Shown: piece by piece, positions 8,554 to 28,235 of the stretch | How positions within the stretch are numbered: the first letter of the stretch is position 1 | Layout: every line of letters starts with the position of its first letter | Source of the DNA: Candidatus Hermodarchaeota archaeon | GTDB lineage: Archaea; Asgardarchaeota; Lokiarchaeia; Sigyniarchaeales; SOKP01 | Length of the DNA stretch: 39,756 nucleotides | Assembly: GCA_048885535.1 (NCBI GenBank) | Contig: JBHLLO010000028.1 | Span: 1 to 39,756, forward strand | Direction of reading: 5' to 3' | Position numbers and translations under genes: made by a program | Notes under the pieces: generated by a model | Seen by the model: only the letters and a program-made list of their open reading frames with translations | Told to the model about the DNA's origin: nothing | Databases searched by the model: none

Positions 8554-9522
8554 TTATTTATTCAAATCCTCCCAATATCTTTTTGAAACAATTCTAATTT
8601 TTGGGTTTAATTTTAAGGTTTTTAAATGTATAACGACTTCATTACCACTGAGATCAAGATATTCCAAGTTAGATAAATCATCAAGGAAACCTAAATTTCC
8701 TTGGTCCTTAATTTTATTATTTGATAAAATTAGATGAGTAAGTGATTTTAATATACCTAATTCTTTTATGTTTTGAATTTGGTTATTTGAGAGATCTAAT
8801 TTCTTAATAGCATTTAAATGTTCTAAACCCTCAATTTCAAGGATATTTGAGATATTATTATTCCATCCCCAAGGCGTCCCTTTAACCTCGTATTCTAAAT
8901 AATTTGATAAATCTAATTGCTCTACAAGGGCAGTTTGAGGATTTAATTCAAAAAATACATTAGGAAATTTTCCAGATAAATGTTTTATAATTAAAAAGTT
9001 TGAAATAATATCTGATATTTGTTTATGAGTGAAGGTTTCTATTTTGGATGTTTTAAATAACCTTTTTAAAACTTTTTTGTATTTCCTATTTTCATACCTT
9101 TTTTCTTCATTTAGATATTTGACTTTTTTTACCTTTTTTAACTCTTCTATCAAAATCCTTTTCGATTCTTCATTTCCCATTATTTCTAAAGTCTTTATAA
9201 CAGCAATGAGAAAACTATAAGGCATTTCATTTTTCACAATCCACTTAATAAGTTTTAATATTTTTTCGGGGTGATCCTTATAAACAAGATCTAATGCTAA
9301 TTTTCTAATCTCAGGATTAGAATCAGAAATTAACAAATTTTCAATGAATTGATATGTATATTTGTCATTAATCCCAATTTTTTTTAATATATCAATTGAT
9401 TCTAATCTTAATTTATTATCTTCAGAATTTTCTATTATTGATTCTAATAGAATTAAAGCAGTATTTTTATCCAGGACTTTCTGAGAGAATTTTTCATATA
9501 TTTCTTTTGGATTAAGAGACAT
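8554..9522 (-). CDS. HEAT-like N-terminus plus leucine-rich-repeat protein
   Basis: IENLLISDSNPEIRKLA HEAT-like repeat. LRRs KKLDLSNNQI, LTHLILSNNKI and LEYLDLSGNEV. Confidence 0.85.
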   Translation of the reverse strand: MSLNPKEIYEKFSQKVLDKNTALILLESIIENSEDNKLRLESIDILKKIGINDKYTYQFIENLLISDSNPEIRKLALDLVYKDHPEKILKLIKWIVKNEMPYSFLIAVIKTLEIMGNEESKRILIEELKKVKKVKYLNEEKRYENRKYKKVLKRLFKTSKIETFTHKQISDIISNFLIIKHLSGKFPNVFFELNPQTALVEQLDLSNYLEYEVKGTPWGWNNNISNILEIEGLEHLNAIKKLDLSNNQIQNIKELGILKSLTHLILSNNKIKDQGNLGFLDDLSNLEYLDLSGNEVVIHLKTLKLNPKIRIVSKRYWEDLNK

Positions 9523-20535: not shown

Positions 20536-22104
20536 TTATATTCTTTCGATCATCATTCCACCTAATATTATAGGTCCACCAGTAGAATTATATATTTTTT
20601 CTGCTTTGTTTAATTTTGATTTACTTTCAGAATAAATTCTAAAAACTAGATCTCCTTCCTTGATTCTAGCACCTTGTTTTTTGAAGATTTCAACACCTGA
20701 ACTCTTAGAATGGGGACAACCTGCAGCTTTAGCAATTTGATTTATGATGGCATTATTGACCTCTGTTATGTGTCCCGCTTTTGTGGCAAAAAGGTCCTTA
20801 TTATAAGGTCCAAGCTCTATTTCTTCTGGTTTTATATTAGGATTTCCCCCTTGAGCCTTAATTATTTTTTGCATCTTTTTATAAGCTTTTCCTGACCTTA
20901 AAAGTTCTTTAGCTAATGCTTGACCCTTTCCTTTTTGCGCCTTGCCACCCATTTCAAGTAAAATACCTGCCAATTCAGTTGATTTTTCAATTAATGAGTT
21001 TGGACCCGCTGTATAATCTATTAACAAAGTTAAAGCTTCTTTTGCTTCTATTGCAGGACCAATTGCATGACCAATAGGTTGGTGAGCGAGAGTTAAGGCG
21101 CATTCAGCTTCTATTCCGACATTTTTAGCAATATCTTTAAAAAGATAGGCAAACTTCTTTCCAGCATCTATTGTTGGAAATTTTGTTCCAGTCCCAACAG
21201 GGATATCTAAAACTAAGTTTTTGACCCCAAGAGACAATTTTTTAGTAAGTATTGAAGGAATCATCAGTCCAATAGGGTCCATATGAAGAGGGCGTTCAAT
21301 TTCAATAAGAATATTATCAGCTGGTGAGGTATTCAAAGCTCCACCCCATATTATGCACCCATTCTCTTTGGCAACTATAGTTTTTAACTCTTCAGAATCA
21401 AATGCAACTGGTGCCAATACTTCCATTGAATCTGCTGTTCCTGATGGCGATGTGATTGCCCTAGTAGATGATTTTGGAATTGTTAATCCAGCGGCCGCAA
21501 CAATAGGAACTATAATAAGAGAGACCTTATTTCCTGGGACGCCCCCTTTCAGCAAGATTTACTAAGTGTAAATATCTGTACTGTGTTTATCGTAGACGTC
21601 CATTCCAAAGTAAAAAATATCTCCACTTCTTACCTCTGCTAAGGTCAGAGCAGTCATTTCCTCATTGTCCATTCCATTTATCTGGACTCCAGTTATAAAT
21701 GCAGCTAAATCAATTCGAGATAAAGATCCTGAAACCGCGTCGGAAATAATACTGTTAATTTCTTCATTATTTAACTTACTTCCTCTTATCTTTTTTTGTA
21801 TAAATTTAAAAGATTCAGGTGGATCTGCTGGTTTTACGGAAACAATTGCCCCATCCTTAAGCTCCTTTTTCTCTCTTAAAATATCTAAAAAAATACCTAT
21901 TTCACCAGGTTCTACAATGGAATTTGAATAATCTATTTGTATGATTGCGACCCAAAATTCAGTATCAATTGATTTTGATTCTTTACTTCGAATATATACA
22001 CGTTCGCCTGCTTTTTGACCAAGTTCTTGGGCATCTTTAATATTTAAAACAACATCCTTTGTATTACCTGTTTCGAAATTTATTTTTTTTACCTTGAGCT
22101 TCAT
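20536..22104 (-). CDS. deoA: AMP phosphorylase (thymidine phosphorylase family), 512 aa after removing a 30-nt intron; exons 22104-21578 and 21547-20536
   Basis: Two in-frame ORF pieces end in DKHST and resume at GGVPGNK. IPKSSTRAITSPSGTADSME, WGGALN, LVLDIPVG and QPIGHAIGPAIEA are intact. Confidence 0.9.
21548..21577 (-). other. Putative relaxed BHB/BHL-type mRNA intron, 30 nt, in AMP phosphorylase
   Basis: Minus strand reads CAGT-AC^A-GATATTTAC-ACTTA-GTAAATCTT-GCTG-AA^A-GGGGGCGTCC. Central helix CAGU/GCUG, 3-nt segments ACA and AAA, and an intron hairpin. Excision gives AGT ACA GGG GGC (S-T-G-G). Confidence 0.8.
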
Positions 22105-24819: not shown

Positions 24820-25515
24820 TTAATAATCCATTACTATAAGTAGGAAGGCAATTAAAATTAGTATTCCTCCAAATCCTGCAACCAGAGCACCAAGAGTGAA
24901 CCAGGATATCCATGTAAAGATAACAAAACCAACTAATAGTACGAACCACCATGAATAATCAAAGATTTTAAAGTTGACAAGGTCAAAAATTACTAGTATA
25001 AAAATAACGATTAAAGCCAAGCCGAAGACAGCATTAACAACAAAAAGTGGAAAGCTGGTTAAAATTAATAATACGCATTCATAAGCTGCAAAGGCACAAC
25101 CTGCAAGTGCTACCATTTTAGAGACTTTATAAGCTTTTTTTGCAGTAACTAGTTCTATGATAAATGCCATTAAAAGTAACACAGCTGGGAAATAAACATT
25201 CGGAAAATAACCATATATTCCTCCAATATTCGCAATAAATAGGGTACTAACGTATACGATTAAGACTAGAACTGCACCATAGATAAGTAGCATCCACCAA
25301 GTATAGGGAATTTTAAATTTCCCAAGACTTATTAATCCTAATGAAACAAATATCAAGAATGCAATGACTAAACAGATTATTCCCCAGAGGACATATAAGC
25401 CTGTAGCAATTGTAACCCCATAAAAGTATGCAATTCCAAGTGAAAGTGTAAATAACATTCCAATAAAGGCAATCACTTTTGACGCTGTCATCTTTTCTTT
25501 GGGAGCTTCCGCCAT
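24820..25515 (-). CDS. Integral membrane protein (about 8 TM) built from two repeated halves
   Basis: Mostly hydrophobic. The halves KVIAFIG...IPYTWWMLLIYG and KMVALAG...FDYSWWFVLLVG resemble each other. Confidence 0.7.
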   Translation of the reverse strand: MAEAPKEKMTASKVIAFIGMLFTLSLGIAYFYGVTIATGLYVLWGIICLVIAFLIFVSLGLISLGKFKIPYTWWMLLIYGAVLVLIVYVSTLFIANIGGIYGYFPNVYFPAVLLLMAFIIELVTAKKAYKVSKMVALAGCAFAAYECVLLILTSFPLFVVNAVFGLALIVIFILVIFDLVNFKIFDYSWWFVLLVGFVIFTWISWFTLGALVAGFGGILILIAFLLIVMDY

Positions 25516-25692
25516 TTTTTATCACATAAATTTATTTTTTTTAAACTTGCTTTTAATTTCAAATGAAACTAAAATTAGGATTAATCTAGAATCACAAGTT
25601 TAAAAAGCTTTACCAATTCTTTATTATATTATTAATAGGATTTTAAACTTGAAATTAAAAAATCAAAACAATGAATTTTTCGTAAAAATTTT

Positions 25693-25731
25693 GTAGATCC
25701 GAAACCATTGCTTTATGGTTTGTCATCTTAC
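25693..25731 (-). promoter_or_regulatory. Eukaryote-like SECIS element in the 3' UTR of hdrA-mvhD
   Basis: Minus strand GUAAG-AUGAC-AAACCAU-AAAGCA-AUGGUUU-C-GGAU-CUAC: AUGA/GA non-Watson-Crick core, 7-bp upper stem and AAA-led loop, located just after genes with four in-frame UGAs. Confidence 0.75.
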
Positions 25732-25755
25732 GACTAAATTTTTTTCTCGTAAGAT

Positions 25756-26245
25756 TCATTCTTTCGGCTTTTTTTCTTTTTCTATTTCTTCTAAATTTAG
25801 AGATTCTTTTATTGGATTTTTACCAAGTTTTTCTATTATTTCAGATACTCTTATAACTTGTTCTTGGAATTTTTGACCTTCAGCAGCACTACAATGAAAT
25901 ATTTGTATTCTATCTGGAGAAATTCCTGCTGCTTTTAGGACTTCTTGAGTGTATTTAACATTTCTAGCAGCAACTAAGTTTCCTGTCTCATAGTCACATT
26001 CCCCTTCATATCATCCAGCTACAATTACTCCATCGGCACCTTTTCCGATTGCTCTCATCATAAGACTGGGTGTTACTCTACCAGTACAATTAATCCTAAT
26101 AGGTCTTATTGTTGCGGGGTATTGAGCGCGAATTGTACCCATCGTATTTCTGTTTACGATAAATTGTACCCGCCATATCCCCCGCTCCATAACCTCATTT
26201 CCAGCACATAAAGGCTAGAATCTTAATATTATTTTTAATCGACAA
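25756..26245 (-). CDS. mvhD: Selenoprotein MvhD/VhuD (methyl-viologen-reducing hydrogenase delta subunit), 152 aa; Sec17 and Sec68; exons 26245-26164 and 26132-25756
   Basis: Absent from the ORF track. GAGGTGA RBS then TTG at 26245. Spliced translation reads AFMCWKUGYGAGDMAGTIRAQYPATIRPIRINCTGRV...GADGVIVAGUYEGECDYETGN...SAAEGQKF. UGA codons at 26195-26197 and 26011-26013. Confidence 0.9.
26133..26163 (-). other. Putative canonical BHB mRNA intron, 31 nt, in mvhD
   Basis: Minus strand reads GCGG-GTAC-AA^T-TTATCGTA-AACAGAAA-TACGATGG-GTAC-AA^T-TCGC. Exon stem GCGG/UCGC, central helix GUAC/GUAC, two AAU bulges and an 8-bp intron stem. Excision restores A-G-T-I-R-A-Q-Y-P. Confidence 0.82.
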
Positions 26246-26258
26246 TTATTTCACCTCT

Positions 26259-28235
26259 CTATATCTCCTCTAGGATTGCATCAATCTGTTTCTCATATTG
26301 GGGCTCACGATAGTATCTTAAAGTAATTGCTTCAGAAGGACAATTGGCTAGACATGAACCACATCCTCTACATAATATTTCATTCACTTCAGCGCCGTCG
26401 AGTTCAATTTTAATTGCTTCATATGGACAGTTTAGTTCACATAATCCACATTTTGCACATTTTTCTTTCTCAACGTTCGCTCTAATTAAAAGAATTCGGT
26501 ATTTATCTTTACTCATAAGTCGTGCTAAAGATGACGCGGCAGCTCTTCCTTGGGCAATAGATTCTGCAATAGATTTAGGTCCTTGGCTCACACCAGCAAG
26601 AACAATTCCAGGGATTTTAGTATCTATTGGATTTAATCTTGAATGAAATTCCTTGAAAAATCCATCCTGACTTGTTTCAAGTTTCAGTATTTTTTGAATT
26701 TTATCAATACCTTTTGGAGGAACCATTGCACAAGATAATATAACTAAGTCATATTCGAATTCTTTTAGTTTTATTGTACCAAGAGTATTCTGGAGGATTA
26801 CTTTGAGATTATGAGTCTCAGGATCTTCATGTATTTTTGATATATTCGTTCTTACATACTTAATACCTTCTTTTCTTGAAGCTGTAAAATACTCTTCATA
26901 GTCTTTTCCAGCTGCACGAATGTCCATATATGCTACAGTTATATCTATTTCAGGGTCATGTTGTTTTATGAGTTTAGTGTTTTTAATAGAAATCATACAA
27001 CATACTCCTGCACTACAATAGGTTTGTTTTGTTAGATCTCTAGAGCCAACACATTGTATAACAAGTACATTCTTCGGCTTCTTTCCATCGGATGGTCTTA
27101 CAAGGTGACCTATAGTAGGTCCGTTTGGAGCTAGCATCCTTTCAAGTTTTAGTTGTGTTATAACATTAGGATAAACATTGTAACCTAAATAACCTGTTTC
27201 AGGTTCATATTCATCCCACCCGGTTGCAACGATTATAGAACCTACTTCAATTTCAATTATCTCATCTTCTTGATCAAAATCAATCGCTTCCAGCTCACAT
27301 GCTTTTTGGCATAGTCCACATTTAATACACCTTGACATATCAATCTGAGCTAACGAGGGAACAGCTTGAGCAAAAGATGAATAAATTGCTGTTCTTGGAT
27401 TCATTCCTTCGTTAAATTCATCATATCCGTATGCAGGACATACTTCAAAGCAGGAACCGCATCCATTACAATCATTATTTACATATCTCGCCTTTTTCCG
27501 AATTTTAACCTTGAAATTTCCAACAAATCCGGTTATATCTTCAATTTCACTGTAAGTATATAAATTCATACCAGGAGTCCTTGCTGATTGTAGCATAACG
27601 GGTCCTAATATTCAGATACTACAATCATCTGTGGGGAATGTTCGATCAAGCATTGCCATTTTTCCTCCTATGGTTGGGCTTTTTTCTACAAGGAATACTT
27701 CAAAGCCCTCTTCTGCAAGATCTATTCCAGCGCTTAATCCAGCTACTCCACCTCCAATAATTAGAGCCTTCTTAGTAATATCTACTTCTTTTACCAAAAT
27801 CTTTTCTAATACTTCTGCTCTGGCAACTCCCGATCTTATTGCATCTTCAGCTGTTTTTTGTGCACCCTGTTTATCATTTCTATGAACAAAGCTTGAATGT
27901 TCACGTATATTTACAAACTCCAAATATGATGCATCTAATCCCATCGATTCTAGTACACTTTTAAATACTGGTTCATGAGTTTTAGGAGTACAGGATGCTA
28001 CAACAAGTCTATTCGCGTTGGCTTCAAGCATTTTTTCTTTTATAAATTCAGCTCCAGGCTCAGTACATAAGGAGATATAATCTAGTGCCTCAACTACATT
28101 AGGTAATTTTTTTGAGTATTCAGCTAAGGCTTTTGTATCAATTATTTCAGCAACATTAATACCTCATTGACAGATAGCAACAAATATTCTAATTTCTTCA
28201 ATAGATTTTTTCTCTTTAGTCTGTGTCTCTACCAT
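26259..28235 (-). CDS. hdrA: Selenoprotein heterodisulfide reductase subunit A, 658 aa; Sec24 and Sec208
   Basis: One continuous frame from ATG 28235 through ICQUGINV (TGA 28164-28166), ASCTPKTHE, GGGVAG, TFPTDDCSIUILGP (TGA 27612-27614), ferredoxin CxxCxxC motifs and QCVGSRD...YCSAGVCC. Confidence 0.93.

Follow-up and report, generated by a model that had tools for sequence, protein, structure and literature searches.

The window analysed here is a stretch of 39,756 nt from the Asgard genome Candidatus Hermodarchaeota archaeon (positions 1 to 39,756 of contig JBHLLO010000028.1, assembly GCA_048885535.1; G000 below), and its minus strand carries an mvhD/vhuD gene, a selenoprotein gene of the FlpD family, that is interrupted by a 31-nt insert (26133..26163). 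We consider this insert to be, with a probability of about 0.78, an mRNA intron spliced by the tRNA-splicing endonuclease EndA and the RNA ligase RtcB, and a young member of a class of 30–32-nt inserts that appear to be gained by tRNA genes and, on occasion, by protein genes. We infer cleavage and ligation of the mvhD transcript from a motif of the bulge-helix-bulge (BHB) type, the restoration of the reading frame upon removal of the insert, the encoded enzymes, the presence of the insert in real DNA and parallel inserts in other mvhD genes. The relatives used for comparison are Promethearchaeota/Promethearchaeia (Asgard) assemblies, among them a sister genome, G018.

Archaeal BHB sites follow the strand order h–H–B–h'...h'–H–B–h, and the complete hBHBh' motif of mvhD (26128..26173, minus strand) reads GCGG GUAC AAU, a 24-nt hairpin, and GUAC AAU UCGC. 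The h helix pairs GCGG (26173–26170) with UCGC (26131–26128) and the H helix pairs GUAC (26169–26166) with GUAC (26138–26135), both with 4/4 pairs; the two AAU bulges lie at 26165–26163 and 26134–26132, and the h' stem joins UUAUCGUA (26162–26155) to UACGAUGG (26146–26139) by 8 contiguous pairs around an 8-nt loop (26154–26147). A cut placed behind the second base in each bulge takes out 31 nt (26163–26133), namely the third base of bulge 1, the 24-nt hairpin, the GUAC of the H' strand and the first two bases of bulge 2. When the spacing is fixed at 31 nt, only 5 of the 6,176,668 positions of G000 are as good in every component, the mvhD site included.

The host gene lies directly downstream of hdrA. 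Exon 1 (26164..26245, minus strand) opens with a TTG start codon (26245–26243), which a GGTGA ribosome-binding motif precedes by 6 nt, extends through the first two bases of the bulge and holds a selenocysteine (Sec) codon TGA at 26197–26195, while exon 2 (25759..26132, minus strand; E 5e-34) holds the second one at 26013–26011 and precedes the stop codon TGA (25758–25756). According to Pfam, the residues encoded by 26245–26162 match positions 1–19 of the FlpD profile and those encoded by 26139–25759 match positions 19–123, in different frames. Left unspliced, the frame that opens at the TTG ends at a TAG after 49 codons; removal of the insert gives a 152-codon FlpD frame with two Sec codons, in which the two parts of the profile join seamlessly. 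The joined exons read GGT ACA ATT CGC (G-T-I-R), as in all orthologues, and the predicted protein junction is GDMAGTIRAQYP, with the residues GTIRAQYP found in 29/29 orthologues of the same genus and in 80/80 further ones. Orthologues are 74–88% identical over exon 2, with one internal TGA apiece, and both mvhD TGA positions are TGA in every orthologue examined. The gene has the marks of a predicted FlpD/MvhD (VhuD) selenoprotein that partners HdrA: an FlpD domain, hdrA adjoining upstream and two conserved TGA codons. The earlier note, made from the sequence of the window alone, had described a canonical hBHBh' intron in the 26127–26173 region that shifts the frame of a selenoprotein gene mvhD with a TTG start. 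The motif, the frame shift, the gene and its start are borne out: every element it named is present on the minus strand, and the TTG stands where orthologues have ATG or GTG. An in-frame ATG at the 3' end of the insert (26142–26140) might open a shortened product; it was considered as a functional start and rejected, as its product would be devoid of the conserved C-W-K-U segment, which we take to provide the cluster ligands of MvhD.

The machinery for removing such an insert is encoded in G000. Two homologues of tRNA_int_endo (PF01974), of 200 and 205 amino acids and belonging to genes at C6:30393-30617 and C1:55964-56212, score over the cut-off (99.7 and 70.2 bits), and we take one of them to carry the catalytic Tyr/His/Lys pattern and the other to be devoid of the His; RtcB (PF01139) scores 560.9 bits. 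An alpha-beta EndA with a broad-specificity loop is described for Asgard genomes in PMC5829648. The same cut rule was applied to five motif matches in G000 that resemble tRNA arms, and ARAGORN, which recognized a tRNA at none of the five sites before removal, recognized one at 4/5 afterwards (Val, Arg, Glu and Gly); the cut rule is therefore validated in this genome. The tRNA-Val carries a 31-nt T-loop intron of the same architecture, with a 9-bp h' stem. The mvhD insert thus combines a BHB motif, a product restored by excision at the bulges and a genome that encodes both a splicing endonuclease and an RNA ligase. Splicing by the endonuclease, as the earlier note proposed, is favoured by the comparative data, the enzymes, the parallel inserts and the tRNA check. 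According to this model, the exon flanks and the intron would fold into the hBHBh' motif within the hdrA-mvhD transcript, and the endonuclease, probably an alpha-beta heterotetramer, would cut each AAU bulge behind its second base, after which RtcB would join the exons to ...GGU ACA AUU CGC..., restoring the 152-codon FlpD frame, and the 31-nt intron would be released, probably as a circle.

We aligned mvhD from related genomes, as had been suggested, for the presence or absence of the insert. At this position (site A) it is absent from 29/29 orthologous loci read in the same genus, from the 41/41 other genomes of the genus searched with a gapped pattern and from 80/80 further orthologues, and the same pattern gave no match in a species-representative genome collection. 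G018 is colinear with the window over 12.4 kb, and the 31 nt in mvhD and an insert in a phosphorylase gene are the only clean inserts inside conserved genes. No second copy was found in G000 by blastn-short, which returned 11–12-nt chance matches alone, and a search of 161 genomes of the class that allowed as many as 3 mismatches to the 24-nt hairpin returned one match, with 3 mismatches, in an ordinary coding sequence of another genome (G116). Given this lack of a second copy and a number of GTACAA...GTACAA pairs in G000 close to expectation (14 observed versus 14.7 expected), the insert does not belong to a repeat family. Over 133 codons, synonymous changes number 11 on the terminal branch of G000 and 19 on that of G018, beside 4 nonsynonymous changes on each (conservative ones in G000), and 6 changes are ambiguous. 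Two of the four h pairs arise from synonymous changes in G000, to GCG (codon 17) and CGC (codon 21).

Inserts of the same format were detected in other mvhD genes. The metagenome contig L042 carries a 31-nt insert at the same mvhD codon as G000, with the same GUAC-AAU...GUAC-AAU core and a 24-nt hairpin of unrelated sequence (5 bp, a bulged A and 4 bp), flanked by 7-nt repeats. At a second position, site B, nine codons upstream of site A, the loci L093 and L101 (genomes G129 and G152) share a different 31-nt insert, located between TGG AA and A TGA and present in 2/54 genomes of another genus. Its H helix is UUGG/ACAA, its bulges are AAU and AAA, and its 24-nt hairpin has 9–10 bp in L093. Once the insert is removed, the reading frames of L042 (with both TGA codons), L093 and L101 are all intact. 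These four mvhD inserts, which represent three events, share the layout of 1 + 24 + 4 + 2 nt, and their hairpins are unrelated between events. Between L093 and L101, the mvhD coding sequences show a pS of 0.241 and a pN of 0.012 (pN/pS 0.05), and 8 of the 31 intron bases differ. A ratio of 0.05 beside a frame-breaking insert indicates that the gene is expressed intact in this lineage, with the insert removed. One-sided changes between the two keep three pairs, and two pairs are broken in L101; the sequences are too few for a covariation analysis.

A tree of mvhD has 81 rows, taken from 111 sequences after the exclusion of 30 that were duplicates or fell below 700 nt. It joins G000 with G018 (support 99), L042 with L110, L088 and L102 (99) and L093 with L101 as sisters (100). 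The three intron-bearing lineages stand apart, each nested among intronless kin, which implies a minimum of three gains, with one codon hit twice; otherwise, many precise losses would be required. One sequence in this comparison, L114 (JAWODV010000081.1), bears the depositors' label of a Kosmotogaceae bacterium, yet its hdrA-mvhD pair is typical of Promethearchaeota and the tree places it with archaea; the record is probably a binning error.

Several observations weigh against a spliced intron in mvhD. The interpretation rests on DNA, and the listed runs that hold this stretch include no RNA run. BHB-like motifs are frequent by chance in a genome of 30% G+C when the spacing is left free: between 22 and 160 nt, G000 contains 15,296 relaxed matches, of which 113 score at least 36, level with the mvhD motif. 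The motif alone is therefore not significant, and the weight lies in its coincidence with an insert that is defined by the orthologues. The computational fold that the earlier note called for gave the same stems (RNAfold, -15 kcal/mol, z -3.2), but at minimum energy it prefers a variant with a 3x3 internal loop over the staggered bulges; such a preference is expected of nearest-neighbour models and is not decisive. The motifs of the parallel inserts are relaxed: the h helix of L042 has 2/4 pairs, the H helix of L093 has three pairs and a G.A, and L101 is also mismatched at the first h' pair. Moreover, the evidence for selection in L093 and L101 concerns another site in another genus, and its bearing on G000 is solely by analogy. 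The site A insert occurs in 1/42 genomes of the genus, G000 alone, and may be very recent, and the purifying pattern on the G000 branch is unable to date the insertion. Finally, G000 encodes seven further FlpD paralogues, and these, together with the TTG start, mean that loss of this mvhD copy may be tolerated.

The main rival to splicing is a very recent disabling insertion, by which a hairpin-bearing 31-nt piece with a 9-nt duplication, left perhaps by the excision of an element or by slippage during replication, would have created a young pseudogene, and the BHB shape would be a coincidence or a by-product. The restriction of the insert to G000, the TTG start and the seven paralogues fit this account, as does the 9-nt direct repeat GGTACAATT (26170–26162 and 26139–26131, minus strand) that lies within the motif and flanks the insert. 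It would nevertheless leave the dissimilar 31-nt hairpin that shares this core at the same codon of a distant lineage, and the shared frame-breaking insert of L093 and L101 at a pN/pS of 0.05, without an explanation. The site B inserts follow the 1 + 24 + 4 + 2 layout without a long flanking repeat. In G000 itself, neither exon is disrupted, both TGA codons persist and synonymous changes on the terminal branch outnumber nonsynonymous ones (11 versus 4). A transposon footprint in particular finds no related copy in G000 or in the 161 genomes of the class, apart from the 3-mismatch match in coding sequence, and site B, the phosphorylase insert and the insert in a G018 gene (4 nt only) are all without long repeats at their flanks. 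We consider such an insertion unlikely.

Translational recoding would leave the 31 nt in the mRNA, with the ribosome bypassing or frameshifting over them by take-off and landing on the repeated GGUACAAUU and with the hairpin in the gap. Phage T4 gene 60 and the mitochondrial 'byps' are models of translational bypass. Matched repeats do flank the hairpin, of 9 nt in G000 and 7 nt in L042, and the G000 insert has no zero-frame stop. Take-off and landing codons of this kind are found in G000 and L042 only, and at site B (L093/L101) no matched pair restores ...W-K-U-G-Y.... The inserts of L042 and L101 contain in-frame stops (TAG and TAA, respectively), and read-through with a compensating frameshift is therefore no general answer. 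Bypass also has no need of the 4-bp helix and precisely registered 3-nt bulges that every one of the inserts possesses, and G000 removes inserts of identical format from tRNAs, where translation plays no part. Recoding thus appears highly improbable.

The earlier note further suggested that the intron might act as a checkpoint on the HdrA-MvhD complex, that is, as a switch in which splicing efficiency sets the amount of MvhD relative to HdrA. The intron does lie in the second gene of an operon that, as described in PMC4989117, shares one selenocysteine insertion sequence (SECIS) downstream of vhuD, and three of the inserts are close to a Sec codon. The occurrence of the inserts speaks against a dedicated role: site A is occupied in 1/42 and site B in 2/54 genomes of the respective genera, intron interiors are unrelated in sequence, and the same insert class occurs in a phosphorylase gene, in an uncharacterised G018 gene and in tRNAs. 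This lineage-specific and gene-unspecific pattern is better explained by tolerated recent introns than by a dedicated regulator, and a checkpoint is very unlikely. The mvhD intron is most likely a recent lineage-specific gain, neutral or selfish rather than regulatory.

The insert was also sought in public sequencing runs. Contigs from three runs bridge it with zero differences (X1, 25867–26201; X2, 25745–26201; X3, 25818–26210; depths 10–16); they were built independently, and all four public runs come from one study, with the source sample possibly among them. In the fourth run, X4, a contig with 16 substitutions and no gap spans the insert, and no 31-nt skip is reported. Intronless relatives present in these samples account for loose contig ends at 26162. 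An artefact of assembly or binning, brought to mind by the 112 contigs of the assembly and by an insert length equal to a common k-mer size, is extremely unlikely in view of the bridging contigs and of the analogous inserts in assemblies from other groups. The X4 variant (~91% identical) starts mvhD with ATG GCT ACT, like G018, where the window has TTG TCG ATT. The intron seems to be older than the change from ATG to TTG, since this variant has ATG and no gap across the insert, of which the intron letters are not readable (10 of the 16 differences are listed).

The mvhD intron, if it is one, would not stand alone. The comparison of G018 with G000 covered 439,209 nt in 94 alignments with a mean identity of 80.2%. 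Gap counts drop steadily with length, from 33 at 9 nt to a single gap at 26 nt and none at 27–29 nt, before a peak at 30 (1), 31 (6) and 32 nt (2). These nine gaps comprise four tRNA introns, three protein-gene inserts and two intergenic inserts. Two of the tRNA introns are present in G000 and absent from G018, namely that of tRNA-Val (C8:148-178) and one in a multi-intron tRNA (C8:62122-62153), and the other two are T-arm introns present only in G018 (C19:7074-7104 and C19:8437-8467). Two G000-specific inserts, of 31 and 32 nt, are noncoding (C55:17906-17936 and C55:15040-15071), one upstream of a gene start and one between genes, and neither shows a clear BHB motif.

Besides mvhD, the protein-gene inserts affect a vhuU-type small selenoprotein gene in G000 and an uncharacterised gene in G018. 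The vhuU insert (31 nt, C57:8737-8767, plus strand, in a gene that starts at 8676) lies five bases before a TGA, and its removal restores ...RCFDC-U-LSCAAH...; vhuU is unsplit in all 34 matches from the 32 other genomes of the genus that had one. Compensation in the exon helix of vhuU was considered and rejected: the 9-bp flanking helix already has 8–9 of 9 pairs (G-U allowed) in many intronless orthologues and pre-dates the intron (27 of 30 loci parsed, with 3 off-pattern loci dropped). The G018 insert (30 nt, C19:22761-22790, or L152:2761-2790, minus strand) has an H helix UUAU/AUAA with 4/4 pairs, AGA bulges, a 10-bp h' stem, an in-frame TAG and a flanking repeat of 4 nt only. The gene shows a weak winged-helix match in its C-terminal half, and its G000 counterpart (C2:47986-48408) has no insert.

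Within the window, a 30-nt insert (21548..21577, minus strand) splits a phosphorylase gene at DKHST|GGVPGNK, contains in-frame TAG and TAA codons and separates two open reading frames (21565-22104 and 20539-21555). The first matches PF02885, and the second matches PF00591 from profile position 11 together with PF07831, as in phosphorylases of the thymidine/AMP type. The motif is of a relaxed HBh' type, with an H helix CAGU/GCUG, ACA and AAA bulges and a 23-nt hairpin with 8/9 pairs. G018 is continuous at this site, and by pattern the insert occurs in 1/42 genomes of the genus, G000 only. Judged by its sequence, it resembles another intron in a protein gene of the window, and it stands outside the nine-gap count because BLAST divided it into smaller gaps. 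The vhuU, G018 and phosphorylase inserts all have relaxed motifs without an adjacent h helix and are candidates from DNA. Genome-wide BHB scans with filters for joining open reading frames gave 259, 295 and 399 candidates, mostly intergenic junctions; they were judged too noisy, and no count of coding introns was drawn from them.

Three of the coding inserts lie near a Sec UGA in Hdr/Vhu selenoprotein genes: the site A insert 32 nt after it, the site B insert 1 nt before it and the vhuU insert 5 nt before it. This clustering might reflect an ascertainment bias or be real, for instance if ribosome pausing gave splicing time. The mvhD codon at site A was struck twice independently and the second mvhD site once, and vhuU, the phosphorylase gene and the uncharacterised gene were struck in sister species; given this recurrence, we tentatively raise the possibility of an active, site-selective process that plants uniform 30–31-nt BHB mini-introns in mRNAs and tRNAs of this Asgard genus, an idea we regard as doubtful at present. 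From about three to four coding cases per 439 kb across the two genomes, some ten or more would be expected in each genome. Such introns could plausibly arrive by a reversal of the EndA/RtcB reaction, in which a circular intron would enter a transcript at a proto-BHB site and then be copied back into DNA.

Upstream of mvhD, hdrA (26259..28235, minus strand) contains in-frame TGA codons at 28166-28164 and 27614-27612. A hairpin flanked by AUGA...GA was found in sequence and fold at 25697..25726 (minus strand), ~30 nt 3' of the mvhD stop codon, and is a candidate SECIS of the Lokiarchaeota type shared by the four TGA codons of hdrA and mvhD. Its candidate likeness to the 'lokiSECIS' is drawn from the description in PMC4989117, according to which hdrA and vhuD share one downstream SECIS. 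An Rfam search of 25300-26400 matched no family and gave a single sub-threshold snoRNA-like match on the other strand.

Among known systems, HAC1/XBP1 resembles the proposed mvhD intron in its working only: an endonuclease acting on paired stem-loops removes a short frame-shifting coding intron and an RtcB-type ligase joins the exons, with no spliceosome. No homology or regulation is claimed, as the endonuclease there is Ire1 rather than the tRNA-splicing enzyme and the system is a regulated stress switch. A BHB intron in a coding region is known from the cbf5 pre-mRNA of Crenarchaeota (Watanabe 2002; Yokobori 2009; PMC2738675), which, as described there, shares with the mvhD insert the short BHB-type structure in a protein gene, the dependence of cleavage on EndA, the occurrence in archaea with a hetero-oligomeric EndA and a documented lineage-specific presence and absence. 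The mvhD intron differs in its host, a selenoprotein gene of the Asgard/Promethearchaeota phylum, in the uniform length of 30–31 nt and in having struck the same gene at least three times at two sites. It would also be very young (one genome), whereas the cbf5 intron is ancestral to two orders, and it is known from DNA alone, whereas splicing of cbf5 has been shown experimentally, both according to that literature. EndA likewise acts on an mRNA, as distinct from tRNA and rRNA, in the case of the BHB intron of Haloferax volcanii HVO_1309 (PMC7714728, 2020), with cbf5 then described as the only other mRNA case; this intron lies in the untranslated leader (5' UTR), whereas the mvhD intron interrupts codons. 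The sole coding-region example named in PMC2738675 and PMC7714728 is cbf5.

Also close are the non-canonical tRNA introns of Asgard archaea, for which repeated gains, mostly on terminal branches and at BHB-competent sites, are reported, with no arrival route found in that preprint (bioRxiv 10.64898/2026.10.13.758758). Lokiarchaeota tRNA-Sec is described as carrying a 31-nt T-loop intron (PMC4989117). The mvhD insert shares with these introns the motif, the size class (as in the 31-nt T-loop intron of G000 tRNA-Val), the repeated terminal gains and the lack of a traceable donor. It differs in that its host is an mRNA, so that removal must restore a reading frame and compete with translation; the preprint deals with tRNA genes. 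Full-text literature searches returned no account of a BHB intron in a protein gene of an Asgard archaeon; interrupted protein genes might be listed in the supplements of the preprint and of PMC4989117.

A frame-shifting BHB intron in a selenoprotein gene of Asgard core energy metabolism, with further cases nearby, would extend the reach of the tRNA-splicing machinery. Gene callers can be expected to split or truncate such genes, and mvhD, vhuU and the nucleoside phosphorylase would be called as pseudogenes or fragments, which distorts the Asgard selenoproteome and metabolic reconstructions. Very young gains for which intronless sister genomes are available make the question of how such introns arrive testable. 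If the reading of an active process were true, it would be a living case of protein genes acquiring introns through non-spliceosomal machinery, among the prokaryotes most closely related to eukaryotes.

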